Positions 15,719 through 56,900 of a stretch of 64,000 nt of DNA are shown here, piece by piece (positions within the stretch are counted from its first letter, which is position 1; the number at the start of each line of letters is the position of its first letter). Under the pieces are notes generated by a model. The model was not told the origin of the DNA, did not search any database, and saw nothing but the letters and a program-made list of their open reading frames with translations. The position numbers were made by a program, and so were the translations under genes. Origin of the DNA: Daphnia carinata (Eukaryota); assembly GCF_022539665.2 (NCBI RefSeq), contig NC_081334.1:310001-374000 (forward strand). Direction: 5' to 3'.

Positions 15719-16443
15719 TGTAAAGCATCTTCCCGTGTGGGAAGATGGACTTTACCGAAATTAAGACAATAAATGTAAATCGAACTCGAGGCGTTTTACC
15801 CACAATGACGTCTGTGTTTATTATAAGCTAGGACATAAGAAATAAAAAGACAAGAGAACAAAAGACGAGAAGAAACATTCAGAAAACAAGTTAAAAGAGG
15901 GAACAATTAAACAGGGTCTTACCGTGAACTCACGAGTGAAAGAATGGAAGATAAAATGACACAAGACGAGCTTGGAATTCAGCTTCCACACAGACAGAGT
16001 TTGGAACGCAAGAATTGGCACAGAACGTCTGAGAAGACTCAAGACGAGAACGAGTTTTCTACTCAAAGGTTTGGTTACTGAAACATTAATTAAGGCACAA
16101 TACTACTCAAATAAGCAAGAAAAAATGACTTAGGGCAACTACTCGGCACGGCTGCAACAACTTGTCTGATCTTCCTCAGATGCTGGGTTAACCACGGAAC
16201 TTTGCATATTGCAAAGTGGCGTGATTGGGAGGAGCTTGTAGGCTTCACGCGGTTAACCAATCAAAAGGACGCGTTCAATATGGTGTGATATTGGTGACGT
16301 ATCGTCTGCGTGAATCAGCTTGCAGGTGTTCATCTAGGTCAGCTGCACTGCGTATAGTGTTGCAATTGTCGTGCCCAGACTTGTATTTACTACTGAAGCA
16401 AAAGCGAGAAAAGTTAAAGTAAGATATATTCGGCTTCGTTACA
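15719..16443 (-). repeat. 3' LTR of element 2
   Basis: TGT...ACA, direct repeat of 27727-28451. Confidence 0.97.
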
Positions 16444-16476: not shown

Positions 16477-17523
16477 TCAGAGTTGATGCATCGGAATCGA
16501 TTCGGGAGCCGCAGGTCTTGGATCATCGGAAGGGCGACAGCAGACAGCCCAGATGAGGGTAAAAAGACCGCAGGCATAGCAAATGCGCAAGAAGATAAGC
16601 ACCAAAAGACATAAAATGCCGATGAAGAAATAATTCGTGATGGTGTCCCACCAAGATGTATAAGTTCCGACACTGGCTGATGTCATTAAGACGGTCGACG
16701 CACTGTATTTGTGGTGTAAGGCAAATTCAGGTGCAGGATGTTCATTAATCGCGGCGGCTATATCGGCCATAATGTTCATATGATTTAGCATATTGTCAGT
16801 ATATGCCGGGTTGCTTCGATGGTCGTAGTCGAGAAACTCGACATTTTCATACCGAAAAGAATGTGCAAGTGTTTGTTCCGGTAACACAATGTTTGCTTCG
16901 ATTGGTTTCCATGTGTCGTTACGGAAGGCGTAAGGTTTGTCGTTAAAATTAACGAAACCGTTAGTCCAATAACAAGGGGAATATTTAACAAGTTCCCATC
17001 CGTCGAGATTAATGGTGTAATTTTGAAATTTCGGCTGCGGTCCGCAAGATGTCAGTATAGTCTCAAATGTAACATTTAAAGTTTTACATTGAATTAATAC
17101 AACTGTTTTTCCAAAGGCCTGTAATTTCGTGCATTGTGGTAAATTTAACTGCGAAGCTGCTAACCATCCGTTATATTGAGCCGTTGTAACGGCCCTTTCG
17201 TGTTTGGCCTTGCGAGCTTCACATTGCATTAGTCGAATTTGTCTTGCTAATTCATTTTCATGATCAGTAAGTTGGTCTCGAATATATTGTATATTCGCGG
17301 GTACGTTTAAATTTTCATCGGTAGATGGCGCCGGAGTCTCCAAAGTGGTTGGTAAATTTTCCATGATGGCCGCCGCCGAAACGGTGAGTTTCGATTGGCC
17401 GATGATCTCGAACGACGAAGTTCTATTCTGAATTCTAAGTATTTTTATGCGGTGACTGGTGTCATTGGGAAGAAGAAAGAATAATCTCAATGATGCAAAA
17501 GAAAAATTCGGGAAACAATGCAT
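16477..17523 (-). CDS. env: env-like glycoprotein (putative class III gB/chuvirus-like, C-terminal half)
   Basis: Lies just upstream of the PPT. Heptad helix ending QCE, Cys-rich beta region, several N-x-S/T sites and a C-terminal TM (YFFIGILCLLVLIFL). No clear signal peptide, so the true start is uncertain. Confidence 0.75.
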   Translation of the reverse strand: MHCFPNFSFASLRLFFLLPNDTSHRIKILRIQNRTSSFEIIGQSKLTVSAAAIMENLPTTLETPAPSTDENLNVPANIQYIRDQLTDHENELARQIRLMQCEARKAKHERAVTTAQYNGWLAASQLNLPQCTKLQAFGKTVVLIQCKTLNVTFETILTSCGPQPKFQNYTINLDGWELVKYSPCYWTNGFVNFNDKPYAFRNDTWKPIEANIVLPEQTLAHSFRYENVEFLDYDHRSNPAYTDNMLNHMNIMADIAAAINEHPAPEFALHHKYSASTVLMTSASVGTYTSWWDTITNYFFIGILCLLVLIFLRICYACGLFTLIWAVCCRPSDDPRPAAPESIPMHQL

Positions 17524-18442: not shown

Positions 18443-18805
18443 TCAATTTTCTTCCGGCGGCGGAATGGGACGGCGGTTTTCCGGGTCCAGATCCAGGATT
18501 GAAGCAAATACTTCGGTTGCCTGGCTCCATTCTTCACGTTCGAGGAGTTGAACGAGTTCCTCCGTGCGAGCTCTCGTCAGCCTGGCGATTCTCCACCGAT
18601 TTTGGAGATGGTGCTGGAAGTTTCTCAGCCCTGATCCGGATGGGCGCCGGTGGTCTAGGGCTTCCCGCATGGCCCGGTCCTTCTCTTCCACTGTTGAAGA
18701 GGTGCTAGTAGCTTCCGCCACTATGAAGGATCGTTCAGCGGTAAGACCGTGACAGATTCGTTTCCAAGGAGGCATCCCCGTTTGACGGGAGTGATTTTCG
18801 GCCAT
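18443..18805 (-). CDS. Accessory ORF A of element 2 (120 aa, unknown function)
   Basis: ATG start; TATA-like CATATAAG ~100 nt upstream; AATAAA downstream; shares the E-W-x2-A-x6-ILDLDP-x2-R motif with ORF B. Confidence 0.7.
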   Translation of the reverse strand: MAENHSRQTGMPPWKRICHGLTAERSFIVAEATSTSSTVEEKDRAMREALDHRRPSGSGLRNFQHHLQNRWRIARLTRARTEELVQLLEREEWSQATEVFASILDLDPENRRPIPPPEEN

Positions 18806-20270: not shown

Positions 20271-20705
20271 TTATTGTGGGATGGTGATAGGGTCGCGCCT
20301 CGGTCTTTTACGACCAGTGTCCCACTGCTCAGGCAAAAAGCTGTAAAGAGGGGGGTAGCGCTTTGTTGGATCCAAATCCAGAATTTTTTTCAGGGTGTTG
20401 ACTGCTCCCTCCCAATCTTCGGTGTAAAGATTGGTATTTAGTTGACGGATGAACGCAGCCGTGCGTTCCTCGATATGGCGCTCGTAGCGGTCACGTTCCA
20501 TGTCCCATTTTTCCATGTCGTCGAGCTCCGGGGACTGAGGCGTTTGGCTGACGATGTTGCTAGATTTGTCCGGAACGGGCGTCCAATCGGCGTAGACGGG
20601 GATGGCAGCCATTGGTGCCATCACTTTCTCTGCTTGCTCGTCGGCACTTAGCCACTCGCAAGCTGCCTGGGATTGCTGGTTAGCAGAGTTAGCGCACGGG
20701 TCCAT
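20271..20705 (-). CDS. Accessory ORF B of element 2 (144 aa from first ATG, unknown function)
   Basis: AAAAATG context; TATA-like GTATTTAA ~100 nt upstream; EDWEGAVNTLKKILDLDPTKR is paralogous to ORF A. Confidence 0.7.
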   Translation of the reverse strand: MDPCANSANQQSQAACEWLSADEQAEKVMAPMAAIPVYADWTPVPDKSSNIVSQTPQSPELDDMEKWDMERDRYERHIEERTAAFIRQLNTNLYTEDWEGAVNTLKKILDLDPTKRYPPLYSFLPEQWDTGRKRPRRDPITIPQ

Positions 20706-20862: not shown

Positions 20863-23800
20863 CTAATTCCTATAACGCATTGGTAGTTTTCGATTTCTTT
20901 GCGGGCGTCCGGTAGCATGTTGGGGTGGCAGTATTTCTTGCTGACTGATGGCAGGCGCCACCTGTCGGGCGTCAGATTCAAGATTAATCACCGCAGCTGC
21001 GTTGTTTCCGTGAATTGTTGTGGTGTTCTTTGTTTTATTGGACGCACCAACATGAGTTGACTCATTATCGTCTGAAGTATATATTCCTTGGGTTTCGCTG
21101 ACGATATGAGAATGTTTATTGTTTTGGGTGGCGGCCATTTGCAATTCCGCTGCCTCCAATTCCACAGTTTCCAATTCCACACTTTCCGCATCCATACTTT
21201 CAACATTTCTTTCCGTACCCACATTTACTGTTTCCAAAGGTTCCAATTCCATATTTTCCCATTCACTCGCGTTTCGCTCTATGTTTTCCATAGTTTCGAT
21301 TGTTTGGGTGGAAATCGATTTACGAAATCGATTCTCGAACTTCGAAGGCGTCTCGATAGGGGGACAATGTTCGTCTTTCCATAACATTGTTTCGTACAGG
21401 GGTTTTAGGCGGTTAACATGAGTGCGTTGACAAATGTATGAATTATCAGCAATATCTACTGTATTATTGGAATATACTTTTACAATTCTATAAGGACCTT
21501 TATATTTAGAGGTAAATTTCCTACTATCGCCCTCTTTGACTACTCTAATATCTAATAATACCCTATCTCCTACCACATATTGTTTTACATTTGCTCTTTT
21601 ATTATATTGTTCCTTCTGACGTTTTCTTGCTTTTTCGCTCTCCTCACGGACGCGTTGGAAACTATAACGTAAGCGATCAGCTAAATTACCTACGTAATCT
21701 GATGCGGAGATAAATGTTTTTGGGGAAGCGTCAAGGAATTCATTAATAGGTATATTAGGATCTCTACCGTGCAGTAAATAATATGGGGTTTCACATGTCG
21801 AAGAATGGACAGAACTACGGTAAGCAAATAAAACATCATCCAGCATATCTTCCCAATTCTCATGTTCTCCATCTTTTAATTCCTTTCTCAACATTGTGGT
21901 CAATGTTCGATTAAATCTCTCAGTTTCGCCATTGCTAGCTGGATTGTAAGCAGTTGTTAACTTTTGATCAATTTTTAATTTCTTACAGAAGTAACGGAAT
22001 AATTTGGACGTGAAATTAGTTCCACGATCGGAAAGGATGGCTTTAGGCATACCATGTCTAACTATAATTGTTTTATATACACAATCTGCTGTCGTCTGCG
22101 CTGTTTGATCTTTTAACGCAATAGCCTCTACCCACCGGCTAAAATAATCGGTAATAACTAAAATATAATTATTTCCATTAGGTGAAGCCGGCGTAATAGG
22201 ACCCAAAAAATCCATTCCAATGACCTGGAAAGGGGCCTTTGCTATTTCATGAGGATGCAACAATGCTTTATATGAAGAAGAAGTGTTGGCAATGCACACC
22301 TCACAAGCTTGACAGTATTCTTTAATTTCCTTTCTCATATTCGGCCAATAATAATGATTCTTTATTTTCAAATAGGTTTTATAAAAAGCTAAATGCCCAC
22401 CCATCGGTGCGTCATGTAGTTCTTTGAGCACTAGATGGCGTAACGATGCAGGCAAGACTAACTGATGGTTAGTTTCGTTTCTTTTGCTATCGGTAGATGG
22501 CAGCACGTGCCGGTAAAGTGTTCCATCAATAACTTCAAAATACTCAATTTCTTTCACCCAATCTGGTTTAGATTGAAGAAAAGCTTGATCAAGTTCTCCG
22601 TTATCCAAATAATTACGAATGGCTATGCAAAGCTCATCGTCCAACTGTTTTTCACAAATTAAGGTAATATTGCTCACTGTTTGGATACTAGCTATTTTTA
22701 AGCGGGACAGGCAATCTGCGTTTTGGTGAACACGTCCTGGCCTATATTTCAATTCATAATTCGTTGCGGCCAATAGTATAGCCCATCTCCCTAATCTACC
22801 ATTATTATCTTTCTGTTCTTTAAGCCATTGCAAGGGACGGTGGTCACTAATAATTTCAAAGGGTTTATCTAATAGGTAATGCCTAAAATGCTTAATGGCA
22901 TCTACGACTGCTAAGGCTTCCTTTTCTGTCGTACTATAATTCGATTCTGCTTTTGTCAACTGTCTACTGGAATAGGCTATGGGATGTTCCTGGCCATTTT
23001 GAATTTGGGATAGCACTGCTCCAATACCGTAGTCGCAGGCATCGGTGAAAAGAATAAATTTTTCATTGAAATTGGGGTAAGCAAGAACTGGTGGCGTTAC
23101 TAGAGAATTGCGCAATTTCTCGAAAGCAACTTGTTCCTCAGGTCCCCAATAAAAAGGCTTTCTGCTAAGATCTTTATGCGTTAATCGAGTTAACGGTTTG
23201 GCAATTGATCCAAAATCTTTAATAAATCTTCTGTAATATCCAGCTAATCCGAGAAACGATCTGATTTCGTCGACTGAAGTCGGTGTTTTATAATTGACTA
23301 TTTTGTCAATTTTGCTCGGATCCGGTTTAATACCATCGGTCGATATTACGTGACCTAGATAATTTACTGAGCGTTTAATAAACTGGCATTTCTTGAGTTT
23401 CAATTTCAGATTAGCATCTCGTAATAATTCAAAAATTTCTCGAATATCACGTAAATGATCGTCGAAAGTGTCTGAAAAGATGATAACGTCATCCAAATAA
23501 ACTAATGTTTTACGCCCCAAGACGTCTCTCAGTACGTAGTTCATTAGCCGTTGGAATGTGGCCGGTGCATTGCACAAACCAAATGCCATACGTTTAAATT
23601 CGTAGAGGTTGTTTTCTACCACAAACGCTGTTTTTTCAATAGCTGGATCGTCAATTTGAATTTGCCAATAGCCTGAAGCTAAATCAAGAGTTGTGAAAAA
23701 TTTCTTCCCATATAATTTGTCTAATGTTTCGTCTATTCTAGGCATAGGGAATGAATCTTTTTTCGTAATGCTATTCAATTTTCTATAATCAACACAAAAT

Positions 23801-24909
23801 CTTTGTTCACCACCTTTCTTTTCTACTAAAACCACGGGTGAAGCCCATGGGGAATGCGAATATCGGATTACATCTGCATCAAGCATTTCTTGAATTTTAT
23901 CATCTAATAATTTCCTTTGGTTATTTGTTACTCTGTATGGGCGTTGTCGAATGGGGCCTCGTCCTTGTGTATCAATCGTATGTTTTATAAGGTTGGTGTT
24001 TCCTAATTCCGAATCTTTGGACGCAAACAAGTCGTGAAAGTCGAGTAATAATTTTGAAAGCGGTTCTTGAAATTCTGAATCTACTTCTGTGAGTAAAATT
24101 GGCTCAATTACTGGTTTAGGATTATCTTCTAATTTCGCTAACGAAATTTTTCCGATACAATGTTTAATTATTTCAATTACGCCTAATTTAGTGTTCCTAT
24201 GAATTTTGATTTGATGTAGTGAATGATTCTCGACCAAAATTTTATAAGTTCCATCTTCCGATACATTTCCGATAAATTCTTCGATATAAATGCCTGCTGG
24301 CAAATCTTGTGCTGGGGTAAATATAAATGCTGTATTTCGTGGGACATACGGAAATGAATCTTTCATTTCCGCTGCAATTACTGTCGACGTCTGACGAAAT
24401 AGCGTCGTCTTTTTGACCGTAGTAACCGCCATGTCGGGTACCTCAGAGATGGCTGATCCCTGCTCATCCCTCGCTAGGTAAATGCTTCTGGCTTCTCCGT
24501 CAAGCCGAAATCCGTGCTTCTGGATTGCATCCCATCCAAGGATACAGTCCTCAGAAACACCATTAGTTACAATAAATTCTTGTTCAAAAACTGTTTCTCC
24601 GTATCGTACGGGTAAAATAACTCCTCCCAGCGTATGTAATTTCTTCTCCCCTACATCATATAAATCGAAATCAAGTTGACTGCAGATCACCTGACCTCTA
24701 GGGGGTAACTTATTAAACATCCTCTCGTGGATAATACTTTTAGACGCGCCTGTATCAAATAATGCTTGTAACGGAATCTGGAATATTTTTAATGGAATTC
24801 TAGGGGTTGATTCATTCGTAATAGTGGTTAATTTTGCGACTTGTCGGGGTTTAATCTGAGGCTCGTTATCAACTGACCCGAAGCTACAGTTGATAGTTAC
24901 TGGTTTCCC
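20863..24909 (-). CDS. pol: pol of element 2 (PR-RT-RH-IN), expressed by -1 frameshift from gag
   Basis: LFDTGA protease (upstream of the track's ATG), YLDD RT, TDAC...SDHRPL RNase H, HHCC plus DDE integrase and GPY motif. Frame is open back to the slippery site. Confidence 0.97.
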   Translation of the reverse strand, partial: GKPVTINCSFGSVDNEPQIKPRQVAKLTTITNESTPRIPLKIFQIPLQALFDTGASKSIIHERMFNKLPPRGQVICSQLDFDLYDVGEKKLHTLGGVILPVRYGETVFEQEFIVTNGVSEDCILGWDAIQKHGFRLDGEARSIYLARDEQGSAISEVPDMAVTTVKKTTLFRQTSTVIAAEMKDSFPYVPRNTAFIFTPAQDLPAGIYIEEFIGNVSEDGTYKILVENHSLHQIKIHRNTKLGVIEIIKHCIGKISLAKLEDNPKPVIEPILLTEVDSEFQEPLSKLLLDFHDLFASKDSELGNTNLIKHTIDTQGRGPIRQRPYRVTNNQRKLLDDKIQEMLDADVIRYSHSPWASPVVLVEKKGGEQRFCVDYRKLNSITKKDSFPMPRIDETLDKLYGKKFFTTLDLASGYWQIQIDDPAIEKTAFVVENNLYEFKRMAFGLCNAPATFQRLMNYVLRDVLGRKTLVYLDDVIIFSDTFDDHLRDIREIFELLRDANLKLKLKKCQFIKRSVNYLGHVISTDGIKPDPSKIDKIVNYKTPTSVDEIRSFLGLAGYYRRFIKDFGSIAKPLTRLTHKDLSRKPFYWGPEEQVAFEKLRNSLVTPPVLAYPNFNEKFILFTDACDYGIGAVLSQIQNGQEHPIAYSSRQLTKAESNYSTTEKEALAVVDAIKHFRHYLLDKPFEIISDHRPLQWLKEQKDNNGRLGRWAILLAATNYELKYRPGRVHQNADCLSRLKIASIQTVSNITLICEKQLDDELCIAIRNYLDNGELDQAFLQSKPDWVKEIEYFEVIDGTLYRHVLPSTDSKRNETNHQLVLPASLRHLVLKELHDAPMGGHLAFYKTYLKIKNHYYWPNMRKEIKEYCQACEVCIANTSSSYKALLHPHEIAKAPFQVIGMDFLGPITPASPNGNNYILVITDYFSRWVEAIALKDQTAQTTADCVYKTIIVRHGMPKAILSDRGTNFTSKLFRYFCKKLKIDQKLTTAYNPASNGETERFNRTLTTMLRKELKDGEHENWEDMLDDVLFAYRSSVHSSTCETPYYLLHGRDPNIPINEFLDASPKTFISASDYVGNLADRLRYSFQRVREESEKARKRQKEQYNKRANVKQYVVGDRVLLDIRVVKEGDSRKFTSKYKGPYRIVKVYSNNTVDIADNSYICQRTHVNRLKPLYETMLWKDEHCPPIETPSKFENRFRKSISTQTIETMENIERNASEWENMELEPLETVNVGTERNVESMDAESVELETVELEAAELQMAATQNNKHSHIVSETQGIYTSDDNESTHVGASNKTKNTTTIHGNNAAAVINLESDARQVAPAISQQEILPPQHATGRPQRNRKLPMRYRN
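24867..24909 (-). promoter_or_regulatory. -1 ribosomal frameshift signal
   Basis: G GGA AAC heptamer in the gag frame, 7-nt spacer, then stem TATCAACTG/CAGTTGATA enclosing C(TTCG)G. Confidence 0.85.
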
Positions 24910-27692
24910 TGATGTTGAGGGGGCCCTGGAATATTAGGTCTTTGTGAATTCCTATATTTCGGACAATTATTAGACTTATGCCCAATTTCTCGGCAGGAGT
25001 AGCAGACTGGAGGCTGGGCTTGTTCCAGACTGTGACGCTGGAATTGACGACAGTTGAACTGAGTGTGACCGCGGTAACCACAAAATTTACAAGTTATTAT
25101 CTGCTGATCAGACCTGTCACTATTATTATGGTTAGGTGGCCTTGAGAAAGGGGGCGCAGCTTGCGTTTGTCTGTTTGGAAATCGAGGAGGTTGGTGTTGG
25201 TAAGGATTAAGATTATAATTGTTATTATTATAATTATCATTGGGGCGTTGCTGGGGAGGCCTCCAGTTCCTGCCTTGATCAGGGTTAATCGATTGAAATG
25301 AAACTTGTTTCCTATAAGGAGTTCCTGGTGTAGCAGAAGAATAATCTTTCCTATCTTGCTGGAGTTGTCTTACAGCCTGTGTGAGTTCGTGAATAACCTC
25401 CTTGATCTCATCTTTATCCGACTTTGGATTATCCCCTTGCTTATGGCTTTGGCGAATATTAGCAACGGCACTGCTTACAATTTCTTTCTGGTCAAGTAAC
25501 ATTTGCTTAAGTTCTTTTAATTCCGAATTTTTGTTGTTAAATGACTCGTCAATTGCCCTAACAAATTCATGCTTCTCGCGGTCTGTTTCTAGAGCTTCCA
25601 ACCGAACAGCATAGACGCGTGTTGCTGCCACGAGTTCGTTATAATCTTTAAATTCCTTATATCTGACTTTAGCTTGTAATTTTGAATCTAATCCTTCGAT
25701 AAATTTCTGCATGAGGATAACGGCGAAGGATTTTTCCATATACCCATCAGGATATGCCTTTTTAAAAATTTCCTGTAAACGATGAGCATAGTCAACAATT
25801 TTTTCTCCAGGTTTACGTTTAGCTTTATTGAATTTCTTAATGTACACATCAACATTTTCGTCTCCGTGGAAGTGATCGAGCAAAGCCGTTTTAATCGAAC
25901 CATAGTCGTATGGATGATTTTTAATTAAGGTTTGTATGACAGAAAAAGCTTTATCTGTAAATTTTGCACGCATCATTTGAATAATTTTCCCTTCAGACCA
26001 TCCTGCCCCATCAATTATACTCTCAAAAGATTCCAGCCAAGAGTCAAAACGAGAAATTGGACTTCCGGAAAAAGGAGGGAGAAGTTGTAGACGTGAAAAG
26101 GTATGCTGGTTGTTTTGCATATCATTCAAATCATTAACTGTAGCTGCCTTGATAGGGGAATAAGAGTAAGCCATATTGTCGGTAAAAAAAGTTACAGGGG
26201 AGTTTGGAGCTCCGTGATGGTGAGTTTGCGTGATGCCTGGGATGCGGTTTGAAACCGACCGGGATTCGCTTACTTTGTTGTCGGTCAGTTGTATCGACGG
26301 TTTTTGAATCGTAGTCGTTCTGTCTGGCGCTTGTCTGTCTGCTGTGATGATGTCGAACAAGTTGGGGTGATATCCGGCTCTTCCTGATTTTCCCGAATGG
26401 ACGATAGCAACTGTTTCAATTGTTTGGCAGTCTGGGTGAGTACGTTTTTGATGATGGACGATAGGTGCTTGTGGCACGGTCGTGCCACTCTCCGGAAGTG
26501 GGTCAATCTGTTTTCGAGCAGTAGCAGTTCGGGTAACAGTGGTTCCGAGCTGGTGATTGATTGTAGCTTCCTTAAGAACGAGAGTAGGTTTAGTATTGCC
26601 GTGAGAAGAGTCAGCTGGAATTCCAACAATGTTTTCTCCAGGTGGATCGAGAATTCGAATGTTTTCAGGATGAGGAACTCGTAATGCCTCTCTTCCTCGC
26701 TTGCTTGCGTTGTCACCTTCGGCACAATGCCGAAGAGGGCCTTGTCTTTGGCTGGTACGAACGTCTGTAGTTCCTCTATGCTGTACGTTTGTCCTAACAG
26801 GAACGTCGTAAACTGCCTCGCATACGTCGTAAAGGACGTTGTCAACTCGGTCGCCTGTTGGTCCGCCTTCCGCGTTGTCCGCTTTATCCTCCCGCTGGCC
26901 CTCACTTCTTGAATCGCAGCTAGGTATCTCAGGAACACTGTTGGCGTCTCCACGTCTGTCAGCAAATGTGGTTTGCCCAAGGGGCGGCTCCTCAGCCCGA
27001 AGTCGTTCAGTAGTTGGGTCAGCTGGCTCCAAATTTTCGGGTCGTGTGACTGGAAGTCCAACACCCTCTCCTTCAGACACTTGAGCGCTAATATTAGGGA
27101 TGGAATCGGACTCGACGGCGTCGGAAATACTTTGGATGGATTGCTCTGGATCTCGTGGTATAGGTGATGGAGACTCAGGTTGAGGTGATCGTCCATTCAC
27201 TGGGCTTTTCTTTTGAAAGAAGCTTAAAAGAGTACTCGAGAGGAGACTAGCCTTTGATTCGCTTTTCGTAGGTGATTTTGGAGGAGCAAGACGAGAAAAG
27301 AATTTAGCATAGACCGATCGTGGACGTTGAGTGGCTGCGGCGGTAGACTTAGCACGTGTACCAGTTTGTTTATGGGTGGGTTTAACGAACGGAGCGACTT
27401 CCTCATAAGCAGGATTCGACCGTAATTTACGTAACTGAGTATTATCTGTCTGCACTTTAGGTTTCAAAACAGGGGAAGCAGATTTCGTAACGACCTCAGT
27501 GTCTGCTTCTGACGCTTTACAGCCCTGAAACTTATCTAACGTGGACGAAGAACGACCTGGTAGTTTCTCAAAATCAATTAACTTAGCAACTGTTTCGTCG
27601 GTTATTTGAACCACTGGCGTTATGGGAACAAGGGGGGTGCTTACAGGTGTGCGAGGTATCTTATGGCCGCCATAAATAACATCATCAGTCAT
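24897..27692 (-). CDS. gag: gag of element 2 with long low-complexity N-terminal extension
   Basis: 931 aa; capsid-like LPPFSG...WLESFE region; two CCHC knuckles (CKFCGYRGHTQFNC, CYSCREIGHKSNNC). Confidence 0.92.
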   Translation of the reverse strand: MTDDVIYGGHKIPRTPVSTPLVPITPVVQITDETVAKLIDFEKLPGRSSSTLDKFQGCKASEADTEVVTKSASPVLKPKVQTDNTQLRKLRSNPAYEEVAPFVKPTHKQTGTRAKSTAAATQRPRSVYAKFFSRLAPPKSPTKSESKASLLSSTLLSFFQKKSPVNGRSPQPESPSPIPRDPEQSIQSISDAVESDSIPNISAQVSEGEGVGLPVTRPENLEPADPTTERLRAEEPPLGQTTFADRRGDANSVPEIPSCDSRSEGQREDKADNAEGGPTGDRVDNVLYDVCEAVYDVPVRTNVQHRGTTDVRTSQRQGPLRHCAEGDNASKRGREALRVPHPENIRILDPPGENIVGIPADSSHGNTKPTLVLKEATINHQLGTTVTRTATARKQIDPLPESGTTVPQAPIVHHQKRTHPDCQTIETVAIVHSGKSGRAGYHPNLFDIITADRQAPDRTTTIQKPSIQLTDNKVSESRSVSNRIPGITQTHHHGAPNSPVTFFTDNMAYSYSPIKAATVNDLNDMQNNQHTFSRLQLLPPFSGSPISRFDSWLESFESIIDGAGWSEGKIIQMMRAKFTDKAFSVIQTLIKNHPYDYGSIKTALLDHFHGDENVDVYIKKFNKAKRKPGEKIVDYAHRLQEIFKKAYPDGYMEKSFAVILMQKFIEGLDSKLQAKVRYKEFKDYNELVAATRVYAVRLEALETDREKHEFVRAIDESFNNKNSELKELKQMLLDQKEIVSSAVANIRQSHKQGDNPKSDKDEIKEVIHELTQAVRQLQQDRKDYSSATPGTPYRKQVSFQSINPDQGRNWRPPQQRPNDNYNNNNYNLNPYQHQPPRFPNRQTQAAPPFSRPPNHNNSDRSDQQIITCKFCGYRGHTQFNCRQFQRHSLEQAQPPVCYSCREIGHKSNNCPKYRNSQRPNIPGPPQHQGNQ
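26285..27196 (-). CDS. Overprinted 303-aa ORF in +1 frame of gag (unknown, Leu-rich helical)
   Basis: ATG-initiated and stop-free for 303 codons while the gag frame is also open; amphipathic composition. Confidence 0.6.
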   Translation of the reverse strand: MDDHLNLSLHHLYHEIQSNPSKVFPTPSSPIPSLILALKCLKERVLDFQSHDPKIWSQLTQLLNDFGLRSRPLGKPHLLTDVETPTVFLRYLAAIQEVRASGRIKRTTRKADQQATELTTSFTTYARQFTTFLLGQTYSIEELQTFVPAKDKALFGIVPKVTTQASEEERHYEFLILKTFEFSIHLEKTLLEFQLTLLTAILNLLSFLRKLQSITSSEPLLPELLLLENRLTHFRRVARPCHKHLSSIIKNVLTQTAKQLKQLLSSIRENQEEPDITPTCSTSSQQTDKRQTERLRFKNRRYN

Positions 27693-27726
27693 TGTGGTTG
27701 AGTTCGAGAAACCGCTGCCACCATAA

Positions 27727-28451
27727 TGTAAAGCATCTTCCCGTGTGGGAAGATGGACTTTACCGAAATTAAGACAATAAATGTAAATCGAACTCGAGGC
27801 GTTTTACCCACAATGACGTCTGTGTTTATTATAAGCTAGGACATAAGAAATAAAAAGACAAGAGAACAAAAGACGAGAAGAAACATTCAGAAAACAAGTT
27901 AAAAGAGGGAACAATTAAACAGGGTCTTACCGTGAACTCACGAGTGAAAGAATGGAAGATAAAATGACACAAGACGAGCTTGGAATTCAGCTTCCACACA
28001 GACAGAGTTTGGAACGCAAGAATTGGCACAGAACGTCTGAGAAGACTCAAGACGAGAACGAGTTTTCTACTCAAAGGTTTGGTTACTGAAACATTAATTA
28101 AGGCACAATACTACTCAAATAAGCAAGAAAAAATGACTTAGGGCAACTACTCGGCACGGCTGCAACAACTTGTCTGATCTTCCTCAGATGCTGGGTTAAC
28201 CACGGAACTTTGCATATTGCAAAGTGGCGTGATTGGGAGGAGCTTGTAGGCTTCACGCGGTTAACCAATCAAAAGGACGCGTTCAATATGGTGTGATATT
28301 GGTGACGTATCGTCTGCGTGAATCAGCTTGCAGGTGTTCATCTAGGTCAGCTGCACTGCGTATAGTGTTGCAATTGTCGTGCCCAGACTTGTATTTACTA
28401 CTGAAGCAAAAGCGAGAAAAGTTAAAGTAAGATATATTCGGCTTCGTTACA
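27727..28451 (-). repeat. 5' LTR of element 2
   Basis: Direct repeat of 15719-16443; followed on the - strand by the PBS at ~27712-27723. Confidence 0.97.
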
Positions 28452-30879
28452 TTAGGCTAAACCTAAAAACCAATGGAATGTCAGTGACAGCAGAAATACT
28501 GTCGTGAACATCTGTGAGCAGTTATATACCAAGGCTGGTAGGCCTACACATTCTCCTTTAAACAGATATGTGTTGGACTTCCTGTTACAACTTGGTAAAT
28601 TACTTTGGTTGTAGTCTTGATGCTGGTAAGTTTAAAATTAGGGAAAAGTTGTTGGCCAAAATAATGACTTTGTATCTCTAAAAAACAAGCCTTAGGACCA
28701 CCCCAGATGTGACATGAGAAAATACTACAAATAATAAATATAGTAAAACGATTACACGCGGGCACACAATTTTACGACGCCTGCGCCCTTTGGAAAATGA
28801 AGAGCGATCAATTTGGAGTCGCTGCATTGTTGAAAACCATTTTCTTTTAGCAATAGACAAGAAGACAGAGGATTGTTGTAGGAAGCAGTATTCTAACTGA
28901 CAACAAGTGTCTGATTCCTTGTATTTATCACCGCCTGAAGTGGATAACGGAAATGTCACGAGAACTGCAAACATCATCGATAGAGAACCTGTTTTTAGGA
29001 CCATCATGACGCACTCGTTTAACGACACGTTACAGTTTAACGACATATTCAATATGTCGTGGGGACGTAAGTTTCGAACAGAACGATCTTAGTTTATCTT
29101 AAAATAGTTCTGGCAGTTCTATATTGTAGATCTTTTACATTGCCCCATAGGTTTCTTGATACCTTGTGAAAATTGGCGTGAACCACAGCACATTCTTTTC
29201 CGGTTGGCTTACGGTTGCTTCTTCATTTCATGCCTGGCATCAGATCACTCTGTAGGCATTGTCACCATGCACGCCGCTCTTCTAGTAAGTAAATTCATAT
29301 CAATCTAATATAACAAGGTTTCCTTCTTTAAGTAATGTAAATGACGATTTCTATGCCAGTTGGTTTGTTATATTCTACTTGGGCCTGAAATATGCTCTGT
29401 ACTCCTGATATATTTTCTTGGACCTTTGGTTTCGTGTTCCTTAATTGTTGTCGACTGATGTACGATCTCTAACGTATACGGCCTATGCGTCTCGACCCAG
29501 AAGTAGAGGCCCTTTTTGCGCTTCTCTTCCAACCTCTTGGGGTAAGGTGTTCGAGATAGGTGCCATAGTAGTTTAAATTTGTTATTCAAAAGGTTGTATC
29601 AATAGATAAGTCGAATGGCATTCAAAAAGTTGGTGAGCCGAGAATACGCTGAGATCTCTACCCTATAACCTGGTAAAAAATCATTACTAGAAGATATTGT
29701 TAGCTCTGTTTTAATAAATTTCCTTTCTTAACCATGGGGGATTTTTATGCTCTTCAAAATCTTACACGCATTGATCGACTATCAATGATGCTTTCCGGAA
29801 AGGTATCGAAAATCGCTATTTTACATTTTTCTAAATCTTCTTGTACTCGTAATAACAACGTAAAAAACAGGTGCAAGTGGTATCCAACGGAACAATACTG
29901 CACACCATAGACGCAAAAGACTTTCTTGATTCTCCGGAATTTGAATCTAGTCGTGCTTCTATCGAAGACAAATTTCGGGTAAGCCAAGATCGTCATCAAG
30001 ATGATTTGAGCAGGATTTTACACAAGTTAAAATTTCCCCAGGTATCAATTGCTGCCACTGGAACAACGTGTCGTTACATCAGTTGGCAGAGATCAACCCT
30101 CGAATACCTTTTCGTCAAAGAAACAACTTTGGAAAATGTTTTTTTTTTGCGTTCTCGTCGCTAGGAAGGTGATTGACAAAGTCTTTGCCATGAACAAAAA
30201 AGTTTCACCGTTGTCCATAATTGGTCTATTAGTTGAATTAATCAAAATTAAAGCCTCAAAATTGTATTCCAGTTAACAGTTCAGAGAGGCCATCTGTTAG
30301 ATATCCGTCTGCCGGGAATCGCCAATTGTAGTTACGATTTGTCTCGAGAAACATCATCAAATGCATCATCAGATTTAAGTAATTTTGAAAACTAAACATT
30401 TGGCCAGTACGGCTGACTTAAAATTCCTTTAGATCTGACTTTCGTTCCACAGGCCCCTCACTGAAACTCCAGCAGAATGGGGGTTTGCCCAATTGTGTAC
30501 TCTCTCCAATGACTCGAGCAAAGAATTCTGAAACAGAATTCCACTGAATGTGGTCGATTTTACGAAAGATCTCCATCTGTTTTTTAAAATCTCATTACCA
30601 AGATTGATTATTGACTGTCAAGAAGAGCGGGTTGGAGCGGTTTTCGACGAAAAATTTATCATGGCGAAGGAAAACGAATGCCAAACGTCCACAAACAGAT
30701 TTTGTAAGCATCAAGCCTAAATGAACAGTTAAGTTGTTAAAATAACTTTTCTTCTTGATCTCATTCTTGTATAACAAAACCTGTACATCAATTATTAATC
30801 CAGTTTTTTACTTAAATATTGAATTAAATTACTGTTTACATTCCCGAATTAATTCAAATTTAGAACCAGAATAATTTAC

Positions 30880-31200
30880 TACCGCTTCAGCCTGGTAGTA
30901 GCTTGGAACTGAGTAGTACTTCTGTGCCTTGGTGTGGTAGCTATGAGTGGCATAGGTTGTTGGGTAGTATATCGGAACTTCAGTGTAATAGCTTGGTGCA
31001 GCATACGTTGTGGTGTAGTATTCGGGAGCCTCCGTAGTGTAGTATTGAGTAGGCCTCAATGTAAGAAGAAGGAGCGGCGTAAGTGGTGGCAGAGTACTTC
31101 GGAATTTCTGCATTGTAGCGTGTTGCAGCATAGGTTGTGGTGTATTCTAGAGCCTTTGTAGTGTAGTATTGTGGACCCTCCGTCTTGTAATACATGGGGG
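30880..31200 (-). pseudogene. Fragment of Tyr/Thr-rich repeat protein (YYTTTYAAPSYYTEAP type)
   Basis: Frameshifted repeats YYTTEAPEYYTTTYAAPSYYTEVP. I recognise this repeat type from Daphnia predicted proteins. Confidence 0.65.
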
Positions 31201-34200
31201 CCTCAGTATAGTCAATGGACTTTTTTCGTGTAGGCAGTGTGAAGTTTGTACTGAACGGTAAAAGGAACGTATACGTTCAATGGTAAATCCAATAGAGGCG
31301 GAATTTTCGAAAGCCATGGACAATGAACGGACAGCTAAATAATCAAAGACGTACAATTAGCCATCGAATTAGAAACACCAATTAACAATTTGAGGTACCT
31401 TGTGTTCGACAAAAGTTGCATCTTTTGATGCGGTGAAACCCAGGTCTGTCCTAATCTTTAAAGGATACGAAACCGTTTCAAAAGTGGCCATCGCAGGCAA
31501 AACAAGATCAAGTTCGCGCTGGAAAAGACTATCCGTTTTGGCAGTTGATCATCAGCCCCCTTGAAGAACACAATCGAAGAGTTTTCTCCTGAATGCACAA
31601 TTTAAAATTATGATATTAAAAAACAGTATGAGGTAATACAGAAATACGTTTTAGAATACCGTGCTGCCTGTGCGAACAGGCCTGCAGGGCAACTCACGTT
31701 CTGAATGAACACTAACCGTTGACTGCTAGCCACAAATTGACTAAGAACATCGCTGCCAGCGTGATCAGCCTATTAAAGCATACGTAATTATATGTCCCAA
31801 TGCCAACTGTTTGGGCTCTACGTCACCTTCATTTGCAGGGTCAATCGGTTGACACCAGGCACAATATTGACATCCTAAACACTCAGTTTGTGCGTGTATT
31901 CTTCCTTGATGACTGAAAGGTCGGTTGGTAGAAGCCCATGACTCACCTTACGTCTAGGAATTGATCGAGTTAGACTTCGAGTACGAGAACCGATAAAAAA
32001 AAAATACATAAAAAATACTTTACTCTAGGAGCTATTGGGCACTTGGACATACAAGTGCAACTGAACTTAGACTGCCATCTTGCTTAAGATGAAGTTGTTC
32101 CTTAATCGGAATAAAATCCGATGACGAAGTGTTTGCCTTTGTGGTTAAAGCAGAAACACCTAGCTTTTCGATCCCCTTTGCGTCAAGTGATTTTTCCGCC
32201 ACAGATCTTTTCCCAGCAGCTTTTGATTACTTGCTGTCGTCATTTGCATTCTTAACCGCTTTGACTGTTACGGTTGTTTCATTGCATTTTACAGGGCCAG
32301 GGAAATGGTTAACCACTTCCACTTCCACTTCGGCACGTACTATTGAGTCGCACAAAACCGAGCAAGGTTCCTTCAGGCTTGTATCGAACTGTATACGTAT
32401 ATCGACCAAATCCATCATGGAAGAGCAATTGATGGACCGGAACTCATCTATGAAAAAAATGAAAATTTATAGCTAATGGAAACAACGCATGCTGAAAAAT
32501 AACTAATACCTAGAGCTGATTGAAGTAAGTAGTTGAAATACTTCATACGAGTTTCAGCATTCAACGCTGGGTAGGCTGCGATATTAGAAGAAGCTTCAAT
32601 GAATCTGAGATTTGGCAGAATAATTATACCGTAGCTACTTAACACAGCCTATAGATTAATAATTACCTGACTTTATCGCCGATTTTCTGAAAGACTTCAG
32701 CAAGCTCATTTTTGAGGCTGACCAAGTTGCAGGTAAAAACGGGACAGATCTCGGCCAATCAAGCGTGCAGAACGCAACCGACCAAAGTGCTTAAAAGTTC
32801 TCATTGCCAGTTCACTCAGTTCCTGTAATTCATTTAGGCTTTTATGGATTATCCCATGTAAAAAATGTTTACCAAATAGTGCCTTGTAAATGCTTGGCTA
32901 GAGGAAAGAGCCTCGTTAAACTTATCGACAGGCGTGGGGCAGACAGCCGATTCATCTCCATAATCCGTGATGCCCGACGACGCAACGACAACTCGGCGCT
33001 ACCCACAGAAGCACCTGGAAGTAGACCACATTTGCGTCCCAGTTCGTAAAGCTTATCTTTCGCCATGTTCCAAAAAAGTGCAAACGACTCCATGGACTGC
33101 TTGCTAGTTGCTCCAGCGTGAGATTGGCAAGTCGATAAAACCTGGAGGCAAGTTAGCAGAATTCATGTTGGGATCACACCATCGACCGTGCTGACATTGA
33201 GTAATTTCAGTTCGTACATATAGCTCTGCACATATGACAAACACCGCCGAGCAACCTGAAACATTAACCGGATGTTAGATGTGGTAGAATTCAAGCAAAA
33301 CGAAGATGAAATACCTCGGCTGGTTTAGATGAAATAAGTAACAGAGCAGACTGTCTAGCAAACAGATAATTGCAAAAGTCGATAACCGACATTGTGTGGT
33401 TTTGGATCTTTTGACGTAATTCCATATTGAAAGTAGTTTTCGGATTCAGGCGTACGCCGGATCAGTCGTTGGGAGTTGCTTGAAAGGCCAAAAGCCAGCC
33501 CGGTGCATCTATAGAGGCCGTTAAGAACAAGCGTTAAGACTTGGCAAAGCCTAATTTAAATCACAAAAACTAACCACCAACAGCAGAGTTTAGAACAAAC
33601 TGCGTGAACAGAGCGTCCAGTTCATCATACTGCACTAAAGCTCCGTCGTATAACCCCAACATTTCAAATGTAAATGCAAGCTCTTCCTAATTACTGGTAA
33701 AAAAAAAAATATTATTTGAGTACAAGACAGTTATTTCCTGAGCTTATCTGTCATACCTGCAACAAGAAATAGTTACAGAAATTCCAGTTCAATTCATTGC
33801 AACGTTCCCGTTGAGTACGCACTGTTTCTTCAAACTTGGTTAGCGTACGACTAAACGCTGCCATTAGGGCTTGCCTCAGACGAAAACAAACGTTTGCCAA
33901 GATTCCGATGACTTTGTTTCCCCCTTAACTGGATCTATGACCGCTACATACACCTGAATAAAAAATATCGAAATAAACGAATGTAACGCCAAATACTACG
34001 TTACCAACTACCTTTCTGTTGTTTTCCCTCCAAAGTCGTTTTTAACTTTGTCTAGCACTGTTGTTCGAGAAAGAATTTGTTTACTTTTCTTAGAATCAGA
34101 GTTCTCTACAAGGATTATGAGCCAGTCTGAATATTCCACTTGTTTTATCGGAGTGAACCAAGTTTGAATGCTTTCTCAAACATTGGCTTTGTAAGTATCA

Positions 34201-39531: not shown

Positions 39532-42500
39532 GATTGGCGGAGAAAAAGGCCCAGAAAAAGGCCCAGACGAAAAAGGCCCATACAAAAAAGGCCCACTTTA
39601 TTCCAAATTTTAAAGTTGGCCTTTTTCTCCATTAAACTGGGCCTTTTTCTCCGCTTAATTTCCATGTTCCTAAATCTTTATTGAGTTTCCAAAAAGTATT
39701 TCCCACTTCCTATTCCGTGGAAGTTGGAATATATAAAGGTTGCTGAAACCGTGACGTCCTGAAGGTAGATTTGTCTTGAAAATGTCGTTCTCTACAGAAA
39801 TAACAATAGGCTAGGATCGTCGACATTTTCAAGCCAAATCTAGCTTCAGGACGCCTCCACCTGAGGGCAGTATAAGCAGATGGAAACCATGAGCAATAAC
39901 AAAGTAACTAAATTGTGTTGAATTTGTATAAGATATAAGAATATTATTATATTTGTATAATATAAGAATTAAAATTTTCTTAAAATTTCAATAGACAATC
40001 ATAAGAATTTATTTTACTACATTTGTTTTTTGTACTACCTTTCAAGCCAAATCTAGCTTGAGGACGCCTCCACCTTAGGGCAGTCTAAGCAGAGAAAGTA
40101 TACAAAAAATCGTATGAAGCGTAGTTCAAAAAACAAACGTAGTAAAATAAACCCTTAAGATTGCCTATTGAAATTTTAAAAAAAATTAAGTCTTATATTA
40201 CAAATTCAATAAAATTTAGTTACTTTGTTATTGTTCATGGCCTCCATCTATCTGTGTAGTACGAAAATTCCATTGATAGCTTTGCTGTTATTGTCTGCTA
40301 GCATCGAAGCTAATACCGAAAAAATTCAGTGAAACAAGGGAAAAGGCCGTTATTGCAACAAAATGTTTGGTGCAATAGATTCTACGAAAAACTCCTTTTA
40401 TCATAAAGGACGGCTAGCTGCTTTAAAGAGGTAAGTTGAGTAAGCTCTTCTTCAGAGACTTACGTGCAGCTTGCAATCAAATTGTTGATGTGGAATATAT
40501 TATGCATTCTCATTCACATTCAATGTTTATTTTGTTTCCTAGGAGAACACAAAAAAAAATTGGCGTCAAGGATGTTTTGTTATACGGGATTATTGATTAT
40601 TACTAGGATCCAAGCATAAACCAAAGCCAAACTTAGGACTTGGTTAACCACTCAACAATTTTACTGTGAAAGGATGCAAAATTATGAAAGCGGTATAACA
40701 TTTTAGTAACCAATATGTCTTAGAATATCTTTACTTTGTTTTTGCATGATGCCAGGGGATCACCCAAACCATGCACCTTTCAGATTGGAGGTCTTAAATG
40801 GATGAATGTAATTGAAACGAGTTTTCATATTGAGCCTGAAAAAAAGGTATGTGAAGGGTCAAAACCTAATTTAAAAAATTTTCATACATTGTGGTTTTCT
40901 TGTGCATCATATAACAAAAACTGAGAGCATAAATTTGTTATTGGATTCTAGGGAAGAATGGATGACTGCTGTTGATTATGCTGCTGAACAGCTTCATACA
41001 GATCCTGATTGCAATGATTTGGATATGCCAGCCGTTTCTGAAAAAACACCAGGAACCATGCTTCCAATCCTTAAGAAATGGAAAAACAGCTAACAGCTAA
41101 GCTCTCGCTTTTCACAGGTATGTGTTAATCTTTACATTTAAGTAAGACCTGCCAGTTTATTCCATTGATTTTCAGGAAAAAAGCTGGATTTATCTGATAA
41201 GAAAACAAAAATCAAACTAAACGGAAGTTAAATGAAATGAAGAAAAAATTATAAAGCAAAAAGAAGAAGAGTAGGTCCTGAATTGCCAAACTTGCATGAG
41301 CAACCAAGGTAGCATCTGTGTCACCAACCTCTGTTCTTTCAGAGTTTGTCTAAACAGAAATTTCTGAACCAAGACTATCAAGTACATTGCCAACACCAAT
41401 TTTCAACAGTGAAGGCTGCCCAGTTTTCAGCAAATTTGATTTTGGAGAACTATTTAATCCCTCACCCATTCTGAAAAAGACCACTTTAGATCCATAATTG
41501 GCAACGATTAAAATGAAAAAAAAAAATACTTAAACAAAAAGTGAAAATCTTGGTAGGCCAAGCTGAAGGTGAGAATCCAGAAGCATGGAAGAAAAACAGG
41601 CTTGCAATGGTGCTCTACACATAGCTGAAGGTTTTCAGGTAAACTATCAATTTGACAAACATATTTGTTAGGTGTTCAAAACTTCTAACGTTTCTGTATT
41701 GCAATAGGTAGAAGACTGTGTGGAATTCCTTGGCAAATAAATAAAGAAACGAGGTAAAATCAAATCAGAAAATAAAATAAATTGGGCTGATCGCAACGAA
41801 GAAAAGGAAAAGAGAAAGGAATGACAACAGAAAAAGAGAAAGGAATGACAACAGAAAAAGAGAAAAGCCAACATTAAGAAAAAGAAACTGAAAAAAAAGA
41901 ACATACAGTGATTAAACCAAATCAAAAAAAGGAAAATTTATCGTATGAAATAATGATACCGACTCATAGATGAGCTAAACTCGTGTTCTTTCATGTGCAA
42001 GCCATGGCGCGACAGTCTTTTAGAAAAATACACTGGCATGCCTTTCATGATTTTGGAAAATTTGAAGAAAAAAATCTTAGATTCATTTTTAATTGTTTAG
42101 TGTCTTCACTATAGCAGACTCATAAAAACAGTCTTTCATGGTAGAAAATAATTAAAATTGATTTGTACTTGTTAATAGCTTTGTCAACTTTAGGTGCAAG
42201 GCTTCCTTATTGTTCATTGTAGTATGTGATGTGAATTAGGTAAACAATAGCAGCTGGAATATGTGCATAAGGGGAAAACAAGACACGAAGAACGTAAAAA
42301 ATTATTTATCATTGCTTGAAAACGCGAGTTCTCACCAGAGACGTAGTATATGGTTCTCTCGGACTAAAGGTGAGGTTACTCTTTAACAAAAGACTGCTCT
42401 TTACCAAAAGCCATTACTATTTAAGTTTGACTCATAGACGTTCTTATGCAAATTAAATATTCCAGTTATGCTAGAACTATTTATAGTTTTGCTGAAAAGC

Positions 42501-43382
42501 GCTCCAAGACAACAGTTAGCAGTAAAAGGCCTGGCATATTTATAGCAGTAGGTTATGATTTTAATACATTTATTGGGCTCTTTGTAATCGTGAAAAAATT
42601 GAAAATGTGATAAGGAAATAAATGGTATGAAAATCAATATTGAATTACAATATTCTTTCTTTTTGTCCTTATCGCAAACGATAGTTTAAGCTTGTAGTGT
42701 TCTTCCTCAAAAAATTATTTATCAAATGTTAATAATAATGAACTAGTCTTCGTATTAACATATCTTTGTTCCCAGCAACCACAAAAGCCCCGCGGAACTC
42801 ATTCAGTTTCCGTATTCATAACAAATCAGTGGTCTTAACCTATGGAATAAGTATCGACAAAGAGAAGTTATAATGAAGATGGATTTAGAGTTGGGGGGAA
42901 TGATCAAAGAGGGTGGACAGAACAAGGCTAAGTGCGGAAAACTTATAATTCTTATATTATATTTAAAGAAGCTAAAGTAGTTCAATAAATAAAAATTGTG
43001 AAAAATGAACTTTATTTAACGGGATATTAGCAATAGATAGATACTAACATAATCCGAAATCCGATAGCTACATAATAAATAATCAAAGATTAACTAGCGT
43101 ATATACGCTAACATTGTTTCATATGGGCAAACCTTATAGAAGGTCACGGTTTCAGCAACCTTTATATATTCCAACTTCCACGGAATAGGAAGTGGGAAAT
43201 ACTTTTTGGAAACTCAATAAAGATTTATGAAAATGGAAATTAAGCGGAGAAAAAGGCCCAGTTTAATGGAGAAAAAGGCCCACTTTAAAATTTGGAATAA
43301 AGTGGGCCTTTTTTGTATGGGCCTTTTTCGTCTGGGCCTTTTTCGCGGGCCTTTTTCGTCTGGGCCTTTTTCTCCGACCTCC
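39532..43382. mobile_element. Non-autonomous long-TIR DNA transposon (MULE-like) carrying host gene fragments
   Basis: ~225-bp TIRs with AAAAAGGCCC repeats; TSD GGTCAGAA(GA), 8-10 bp; removal restores the gag-protease frame NGSEDYIL. Confidence 0.88.
40403..40996 (+). pseudogene. Akt: Captured Akt/PKB PH-domain fragment with introns
   Basis: IKDG*LL*R|GEHKKNWR...PLNNFTVKGCKIMK...PKPCTFQIGGLKWMNVIETSFHIE...REEWMTAV aligns by eye with the Akt PH domain. Confidence 0.8.
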
Positions 43383-53976: not shown

Positions 53977-56900
53977 TTGGGTAGCCGGTGAAATAGGACT
54001 GAAACGAAATAGGACTGGAGAAATTAAAACTTTTAGAACAGTCCTATTTCTCCTCGGCATCAGTCCTATTCCTCCTTAGAAATAGTCCTATTTATTTTAT
54101 TTTGTTCCCATAGGAACGATATGTCTCCAATCCGGTAGGCAACATATTGCGTAAGAGCGTCAGCTTATATCCATTTCCCTTTGTAAAAAGCCGATGGTGT
54201 TAACTCATAACTTAAATGGTTCACCAAACATTTATCTTTTATCCTATTTTAATTTAAATTGCAGGGGACCATTAAATATGTTATATCTAATATAGTTCAT
54301 TTAATAAAATACTACAACGGCCACACCAGAAATATTTATTAAATTTTTCCTACTTTTTAGTGCATAAATAACTTTTCCAGTTGCACTCATGTGGTACTTG
54401 CTCATACAATTATCAGCAACGAATAACAAGCAAGTCTTACCATATCGGTAGCGCTCTAACCTGTGACACGAGTAGTCCTATGTTTGATTCTGCGTGGTTA
54501 CATTTCTTCTGAGGTTTTTAATAACATTTGCGGTTAAGTTAACTATGAATAGTAGAAGAATGTTAATGAATCTTCGCATGTATGAAAGCTAGTTCCTTAC
54601 CAGGAGCAAGAAGAACTGTTGAGATACAAGAGAATGGATGAGAGAGGAGATGGTAGATAACGGTAGATGGGCGAAAAATAAATGATTTGTAATTTAACAT
54701 TTTAACAATTTCTCAACTTCTTTACCAGGAAGAGGATTCTACCACCGAAGTGGATGGCCGAGCATGACATAGCATTACTCATCAAGTGACGTATGCCAAA
54801 GGATTAAGTTAATATTTATATTGACTTTGAAATAAAATTGATGAAGAAGATTTATGGGTGCTAAAGCCGAGGAAGTTGAAGATGGTTGCCGGTGGCGAAT
54901 AGAAAGAAGAGATTTGCAGAAGTAAAAGATCACCGGCTTTAGCAGATTAAATCTTATAGGTGCTTAAGACATAGAGGCCGAAGATTTATGCCGGCGGCGA
55001 ATCGAAAGCAAAGATTTAGGAAGGTCAGAGATCTTCGGATTAAGCAGCTTCAGACTTATGGTTGCACCACATTTAATGACTACTCCATACGACCTTGTAT
55101 CCCGGAAGCTGATGACGCTTGCCTGCGGCGAATTGAAAGAAAAGCTTTACGTAAATCCAGGTAATCTTCACTCACCGCAACAGCAAGAAGCGCTTCCTTC
55201 CTATTTGCCGAGAGGTGTAATTTCGTTTGGCTCCTCGCCTTTTTGGCAGACTATATATATGGATACAATAATACCAACAACTTTAATAGTTCGTCTTAGA
55301 CTTCGATCTAGCACTTACCATTACCATGTCTTCAGCTCGCTTTCAATGTTCGGGATGCAAATCCAGTGTTATCGGCCGGAAGCAATTCTGCGTTTGCCTA
55401 GGCTGCCATGTTCCTGTCCATCGTCTTTGTTGTGGTGTTACCTTCCATAAGGGTGTTTCGCCTTCATGGAAGGAGTTCAGCAACTTTTATCGGTGCGCCA
55501 TGTGTTCTAGTGGTAGTGCAGTCCTAGGTTCCACCGAAGATGTAGCGGATGTTGATGGTGCAGTAGCTGGGGGATCAAAAGGCGATGTAGCTGTTGTTGC
55601 TGTTGCTGGTTCTGAAGGTGGTCGTCCTAAGAGATTGCTGAAGCCAAGGAGCATTTTCGACCCTTCCGACGTAGGCAAGAAAAAGCCTCTAGTTCCAGCT
55701 TCTCCACGTCGTCCCTCATCACCACGACAACGATCAACTCCTCGCACATCTCCTCAGACTAATTCTCCGCGTCGTCCAGCAACTCCGTCTTCTCCACCCT
55801 CCCCACTTTCTCCGTTGACAATGTCACCATTGGTGAGTCTTGTTGTGTCTCCTTTTCTTTTTATGTTGTCTCCTCTTCTTAGGTCAACTCCTCCAGTTCC
55901 ACCACCACGACGAGGACGCAGGGCCCAACCTCAGCTACTAGACCAGTCGCCAGAAGCTGCAATCCCAAGGAGTTCATATGCAAGCGATGGAAGAAGAGAG
56001 GAAACATTTGCCGAACCCAGCGAATCGACAATGGAGGTATATATTTCTTCTTTATCGCAACATGTCTTAGTATTTTATTAACTAAACGTTTTTGTTAGCA
56101 ATCATCGCATGAGGAACCGACGGAGGCATCCTACAAGATTCATGACGAAGGAACGAACAAGGGACTCCATAAGCTTACTGATGGATTAGGTAATAATTCG
56201 AATATAATTGCTAATTGAATAAGACTAAAAGAGGAATTCCTTTCTTACTATAGGATTTTGCTTCAGCAAAAAAGCCATCAGTAAGAGCACATATACATGG
56301 CGCTGTACCTCCCGACCTTCTGGAAACCCATGTAAAGCGATCGTGAAACAAAAGAAAACCCCCCTTTTGGATTGTTTGCTTAATTACAATAATGCTGACT
56401 TCACCCTTGTTCCCCACGATCAAGAGAACACCCACAATCACCCACCAGACATTGGAAACCAGAAAAGGGTAAGTGTTTTTAGAAAAAAGTAATTTGAGTT
56501 TCTAAATGTGTAACTTGCAATATTTATACATAGGTTGACATCTTTAGAGAATCGAAGGAAGCCTGCGTCGATCAACAGTTTACGGACCCCAGGGAGATCT
56601 TATTTACCGAACTGAAGAAACGCAAGTCCATAGAGGGAAGACACATGCCGGATGCTGATTTGGCCACTCGTCGTTTACGGTACATTAAATAATAAATTAT
56701 ATCAATGATTATGGTTAACGATTAAACTTTATATTCCAGTTACAAGAGAGCGAAGGTTATGCCCGCTAATCCCAGGAAAGATGACCCTTTCTTTCCTGTA
56801 GTGGAGAATTTCTTCCCACCCGACTGGTATCAGGGCGCCATCTTTGCTGGAACGGCCCAAGACCGTGCCCGGCACCTTCTGTTCTTCACCCCTACCATGA

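Follow-up and report, generated by a model that had tools for sequence, protein, structure and literature searches.

We analyzed 64,000 nucleotides of Daphnia carinata DNA (assembly GCF_022539665.2, contig NC_081334.1, positions 310,001 to 374,000; hereafter the window, numbered from its first letter) and found that a 12.7-kb long terminal repeat (LTR) element on the minus strand carries an open reading frame (ORF) of 303 amino acids (aa), here called ORF X, inside gag. In a family of Daphnia-type Ty3/gypsy elements, X is a conserved frame lying inside gag at +1, and sequence comparison makes it highly probable that it is a real gene. An earlier note on this DNA had reported the frame, on the same strand as gag, and had suggested that it may be a real extra gene. 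The frame was confirmed at the positions below, and the suggestion gained support because shuffling rarely gives an ORF of this length and relatives keep the frame.

24897..27692, minus strand: long gag, 931 aa (first ATG at 27692; ORF 27803-24897)
26285..27196, minus strand: ORF X, 303 aa, +1 frame, wholly nested in gag, ATG to stop, from gag codon 166
26172..26174, minus strand: ATG within gag, with A at position -3 and G at +4

Gag begins with an extension of approximately 506 aa without internal methionine, followed by a capsid-like (PNMA/Retrotrans_gag) domain and a zinc knuckle. In the Pfam scan of gag, the capsid-like matches were below cut-off (PNMA E 2.6e-5) and zf-CCHC was above it; no domains beyond these two types were found. 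The internal gag ATG at 26174 lies 110 nt past the X stop and approximately 42 residues before the capsid-like motif, in agreement with the arrangement described earlier.

The length of the +1 frame is not due to chance. Stops in this frame occupy 9 of 165 codons upstream of X, 14 of 462 downstream and 81 of 1285 in pol, and none of the 303 codons in X. Holding the Gag protein constant and drawing codon use from the rest of the element gave an expectation of 8.9 stops and a probability of approximately 1e-5 for none. Shuffling had been proposed as a check on ORF length; 303 codons were attained in 6, 0 and 2 of 5000 codon permutations (three variants) and in 23 and 42 of 5000 synonymous permutations (two variants), indicating that an ORF of this length is rare.

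Next, the frame was compared among relatives. A phmmer search with X over 1.84 billion representatives gave 26 matches, 20 of which were examined; nine were from D. magna and the others were metagenome or assembly records. Two clusters of X homologues include D. galeata and D. pulex members, and the named relatives are all Daphnia. Several homologues are open over 235-424 aa from the equivalent start, at or near the same methionine, with 22-47% identity. The +1 frame stays open in relatives, another check raised by the earlier note. The homologues align, with conserved residues, over approximately 270 aa, excluding the tail, which cannot be aligned. Word-index searches gave no match for X or for full gag, whereas exhaustive HMMER and Gag-core searches did, the latter finding 32 proteins, including Gags of 879-1025 aa. 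Metagenome and viral scans yielded no DNA of relatives; the comparison was made at the protein level, using the residues allowed by the +1 frame of each Gag. Ungapped +1 diagonals ran to 295 of 306 for P0076/P0060, 159 of 165 for P0062/P0001, 155 of 163 for P0068/P0055 and 81 of 87 for P0079/P0009, and +2 control diagonals scored at most 21. Profile likelihood in the +1 frame was 82-251 bits for seven of nine Gags (the window and 8 of the 32 relatives), and shuffles gave at most 24 bits. Five of the seven positive Gags may have close kin in the profile; the independent cases are P0070 (82 bits) and the window, which scored 157 bits after its own row had been taken out.

The Gags of P0080 and P0083 (approximately 590 aa, from clusters of 31 and 8 members) have the N-terminus and core found in X-bearing elements; the whole X block is absent, and they scored 17-18 bits. 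They group with X-bearing P0079 (support 90/95), with X-bearing families outside, and this nested position suggests, at the level of sequence, that the lineage lost X. D. magna public gene models P0014, P0020, P0023, P0024, P0041 and P0065 switch between the gag and X frames, so that the overlap is hidden in annotation; standard annotation misses X, the first four models splicing both frames into chimeras.

X is under stronger constraint than Gag in close pairs. With columns set by the X alignment, a choice that favours X, X had a higher identity than Gag in all 11 pairs. With columns set by the Gag alignment, X was ahead in the four closest pairs (45.6 vs 38.1, 35.5 vs 23.4, 54.4 vs 35.1 and 53.5 vs 37.2%) and behind in seven distant pairs, where the alignments disagree. 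The fair test is formed by the four close pairs, the result being independent of the alignment in 4 of 11. Judging from the genetic code, neither neutral drift nor selection on Gag only would give a more conserved X. The start position of X is also conserved among relatives.

X was predicted to comprise a helical N-domain (approximately 1-100), a four-helix bundle (C-domain, approximately 109-270) and a basic disordered tail (approximately 275-303). The prediction is confident and ordered over approximately 270 aa, with helices throughout and no strand of three or more residues. The asymmetry noted earlier, a disordered gag product against a helical X, was thus reproduced by predicted structure, and the compositions agree with the description of a Leu-rich frame over a P/S/T-rich one (16% Leu in X; 11% Pro, 7% Ser, 9% Thr and 4% Leu in gag over X). 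The bundle has a predicted STAT-type coiled-coil four-helix fold; against STAT coiled-coil domains (chain 138-335) it aligns over its full length, at 9-13% identity. Pfam gave no family at cut-off for X or its homologues, PDB sequence searches with X gave no match below E 0.07, and STAT was not listed in the sequence or Pfam searches. Foldseek with the whole X model found no PDB or BFVD match with an E of 0.001 or lower, and retroviral structural proteins are not among the best fold matches. FAM98, RLL and HAUS7, look-alikes from the ESM Atlas (0.79-0.87, low recognition), were rejected as they were absent among the best 50 structure matches; P0001 gave no usable match. Basic clusters with 6-10 R/K in 15 residues occur in 12 of 12 X proteins examined, mostly in the tail. 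Against a null imposed by gag, tail basicity was attained in 9 of 3000 for the window, 27 of 3000 for P0055, 492 of 3000 for P0060 and 1664 of 3000 for P0001. Matches to the leucine-rich export-signal pattern are found all over X, mostly in predicted helices and at varying positions. RVxF-like motifs had inconsistent positions and were dropped. No Cys is among the invariant or near-invariant columns of X.

We then considered how X could be expressed. The full-length RNA would give long Gag from 27692 and, by a putative -1 frameshift, Gag-Pol. Leaky scanning to X from this RNA was rejected; ten ATGs lie between 28090 and the X start, which makes cap scanning to X unlikely. The candidate splice signals are as follows.

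27925..27933, minus strand: candidate splice donor in the leader; first intron base 27930
27200..27240, minus strand: candidate splice acceptors, AG at 27223 and 27210, 8/12 pyrimidines each; weak

The candidate donor is the single match to G/GT[AG]AG within 28452-16400. No ATG is present from the initiator-like site at 28089 to the donor at 27930, or from 27309 to 27197. A purine at -3 makes a strong start, as is well established. In all 16 Gags where a motif served to locate the X start, its position -3 is a pyrimidine. A methionine is present at the internal gag position in 20 of 23 scorable Gags (10 of 33 rows without a scorable core motif were left out), with A at -3 in 20 of 20. The 1019 nt from the X start to the internal gag ATG contain one ATG against 9.8 expected, and X proteins have 7 internal methionines in a total of 3222 residues. 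The start-context and methionine counts come from related sequences, and their independence is overstated. The pyrimidine at -3, the scarcity of AUGs and the conserved internal methionine with A at -3 fit a leaky-scanned sub-genomic RNA. Such an RNA, probably formed by a splice from donor 27930 in the leader to an acceptor shortly ahead of 27196, would place X first; the weak X start would let ribosomes pass an AUG-poor kilobase to the strong internal AUG at 26174, giving short Gag. We regard this route to X and short Gag, deduced from sequence signals, as somewhat better supported than its converse; the internal ATG is likely the start of a short Gag of approximately 425 aa.

Two further observations concern the leader. 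The donor and a strong acceptor within the LTR delimit a possible intron of approximately 95 nt (27930-27836, minus strand), which would take out two upstream ATGs. A short upstream ORF (27736-27689, minus strand) spans the LTR end and the primer-binding site; the gag ATG overlaps its stop codon, which could allow control by termination and restart.

The other features of the element are listed here.

27727..28451, minus strand: 5' LTR, 725 bp, TG...CA ends
15719..16443, minus strand: 3' LTR, 725 bp
28089, minus strand: initiator-like TCAGT in the 5' LTR, one of five such sites
27830, minus strand: AATAAA in the 5' LTR
27711..27723, minus strand: primer-binding-site-like stretch, beginning TGG, 3 nt beyond the 5' LTR
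24903..24909, minus strand: slippery heptamer of XXXYYYZ type at the gag end
20863..24933, minus strand: pol, uninterrupted, with protease, reverse transcriptase, RNase H and integrase, i.e., the Ty3/gypsy order
20271..20705, minus strand: small ORF, 144 aa, between pol and the env-like ORF; no Pfam family
18443..18805, minus strand: small ORF, 120 aa, between pol and the env-like ORF; no Pfam family
16477..17523, minus strand: env-like ORF, 348 aa, with a C-terminal hydrophobic segment and a weak Monjiviricetes_fusion match (E 0.14)

The two LTRs show 0 mismatches over 725 bp, indicating that this copy is very young, and are flanked by a 4-bp target-site duplication, TTAG. These LTRs and the duplication, together with gag followed by protease, reverse transcriptase, RNase H and integrase, place the element in Ty3/gypsy; the pol frame is -1 relative to gag. 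The primer-binding-site-like stretch is a putative match to tRNA-Leu. The env-like match covers positions 313-391 of the 653 in the fusion profile, and the ORF may represent the C-terminal portion alone of such a protein. The two small ORFs have a C-terminal motif that looks alike by eye, which suggests duplicated accessory genes. A second, degenerate copy of the family at approximately 60340-63710 comprises pol, gag-end and env-like pieces with 74-86% identity; the X region is absent from it within the window. Elsewhere, long inverted repeats at 53985-59869 (540 bp, 94%) and 39542-43357 (215 bp, 98%) resemble the ends of other transposons, repetitive Tyr/Thr-rich ORFs occupy two frames at 30829-31276 (minus strand), and ARAGORN called a tRNA-Ser(CGA) at 59120-59199 (minus strand).

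A +1 frame kept open by composition or by an RNA-level constraint, without being translated, is very improbable. A Pro/Thr-rich, Leu/Ile/Val-poor Gag lowers the +1 stop rate, and synonymous permutations do attain 303 codons in up to 42 of 5000. However, the homologues are open and alignable despite 22-47% identity, close pairs conserve X better than Gag, the predicted fold is confident and the start position is conserved. We consider it probable that X arose by overprinting the disordered Gag extension, a direction favoured by codon usage and by the X-less lineage that retains gag. Codon usage was compared with that of pol (r 0.28 for the gag frame and -0.44 for X); in the relative synonymous codon usage version of the criterion the difference was -0.59 (bootstrap interval -0.82 to -0.36), with X further from the rest of the element. 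By the criterion for telling the novel overlapping frame given in PMC3744397, X, being unlike pol where gag is like it, would be the new frame. Dual constraint can distort such a comparison. Alternatively, X could be a host STAT fragment (N-domain and coiled-coil domain) captured ahead of a short gag that is older, with the extension that makes Gag long overprinted on it afterwards. Capture would account for the end-to-end alignment of the C-domain following a helical domain of approximately 100 residues, for X being the more constrained frame in close pairs and for an internal gag methionine conserved as an old start would be. We find it unlikely, since codon usage marks gag as the older frame, the STAT identity is 9-13%, and gag 1-165 is itself conserved (23-59%) and present in X-less elements.

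Regarding function, X would be a folded, dispensable accessory protein whose predicted STAT-coiled-coil-like bundle binds host proteins, likely blunting host defence or signalling. The STAT-like bundle, the X-less lineage and an analogy with the paramyxovirus C protein suggest this host-directed adaptor or decoy, which we favour tentatively. The whole explanation, i.e., a nested conserved gene, the proposed expression route and a host-directed accessory protein, seems to us slightly more probable than its negation. A more specific model appears rather unlikely: Daphnia gypsy elements would carry in the gag +1 frame a STAT mimic (truncated N-domain and coiled-coil decoy, captured or de novo), co-translated with short Gag by leaky scanning, that suppresses JAK/STAT-linked defence or silencing. 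Ranked just after the adaptor or decoy, at doubtful odds, is a regulator similar to Rev, Rex or CERV, made from spliced RNA, whose basic tail would bind unspliced genomic RNA and promote its export. The one strong leader donor in a multi-ORF element, the basic clusters seen in all 12 X proteins examined, a tail basicity that exceeds the null set by gag for the window and P0055, and the gypsy-element precedent CERV (PMC10309623) point to it. However, tail basicity was not above the null in P0060 or P0001, the tail is not alignable, X is without the invariant Cys loop and G-like domain of CERV, and CERV is described as required for export (PMC10309623), yet an X-less lineage exists. We consider it improbable that X serves the particle structurally, partnering Gag or the env-like protein in a matrix-like or chaperone role. 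The start contexts imply co-expression with short Gag, the element has an env-like ORF, and gag showed only capsid-like and zinc-knuckle domains; nevertheless, a lineage with an intact gag core is without X, and the best fold matches are of other kinds.

Long, folded, fully nested overlapping genes are a hallmark of complex viruses, while descriptions of them from animal LTR retrotransposons are rare. The X proteins form a new family in a model crustacean, where both young, intact copies and relatives naturally lacking X occur; of the latter, P0080 and P0083 are natural controls for the function of X. X raises the questions of whether overprinting can yield an ordered 270-residue protein and whether retrotransposons encode antagonists of host signalling. 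Among the titles and abstract openings covered, with Repbase, GyDB annotations and subscription papers outside this scope, no description of ORF X was listed, nor does one stand in the passages of PMC2996953 that were covered.

CERV, from the C. elegans Ty3/gypsy element Cer1 (PMC10309623), is an earlier case of an overlapping accessory gene in a gypsy element; judged by sequence, the X protein family itself appears new. Like X, CERV belongs to a gypsy element with a long Gag, has one exon in a non-gag frame and has homologues confined to the host group (PMC10309623). It differs in having five exons, with exons 1-3 shared in frame with Gag, as well as a Cys loop and a G-protein-like domain, whereas X is a single uninterrupted 303-codon ORF wholly in the +1 frame, predicted to be all-helical, without conserved Cys and apparently lost in one lineage. 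Rex of deltaretroviruses, predicted to have arisen de novo by overprinting (PMC3744397), and HIV-1 Rev (PMC10309623) are likewise overlapping accessory genes of reverse-transcribing elements with a basic stretch; unlike them, X is a large, predicted two-domain folded protein nested in gag, for which RNA binding and export are putative. The STAT1/2/3/5 structures resemble X in predicted fold, at the low identity given above, and X has no DNA-binding or SH2 domain, ending approximately 30 disordered residues past the bundle. The paramyxovirus C protein, overlapping PNT, is a helical, dispensable accessory whose frame overlaps the N-terminal part of an essential protein, an arrangement like the one proposed for X; according to PMC3934983, it is proposed to have arisen de novo by overprinting and helps block the host antiviral response. 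C belongs to an RNA virus, not a retroelement, and no homology to X was seen, whereas X is predicted to be ordered over approximately 270 aa and probably depends on a sub-genomic RNA for its expression.
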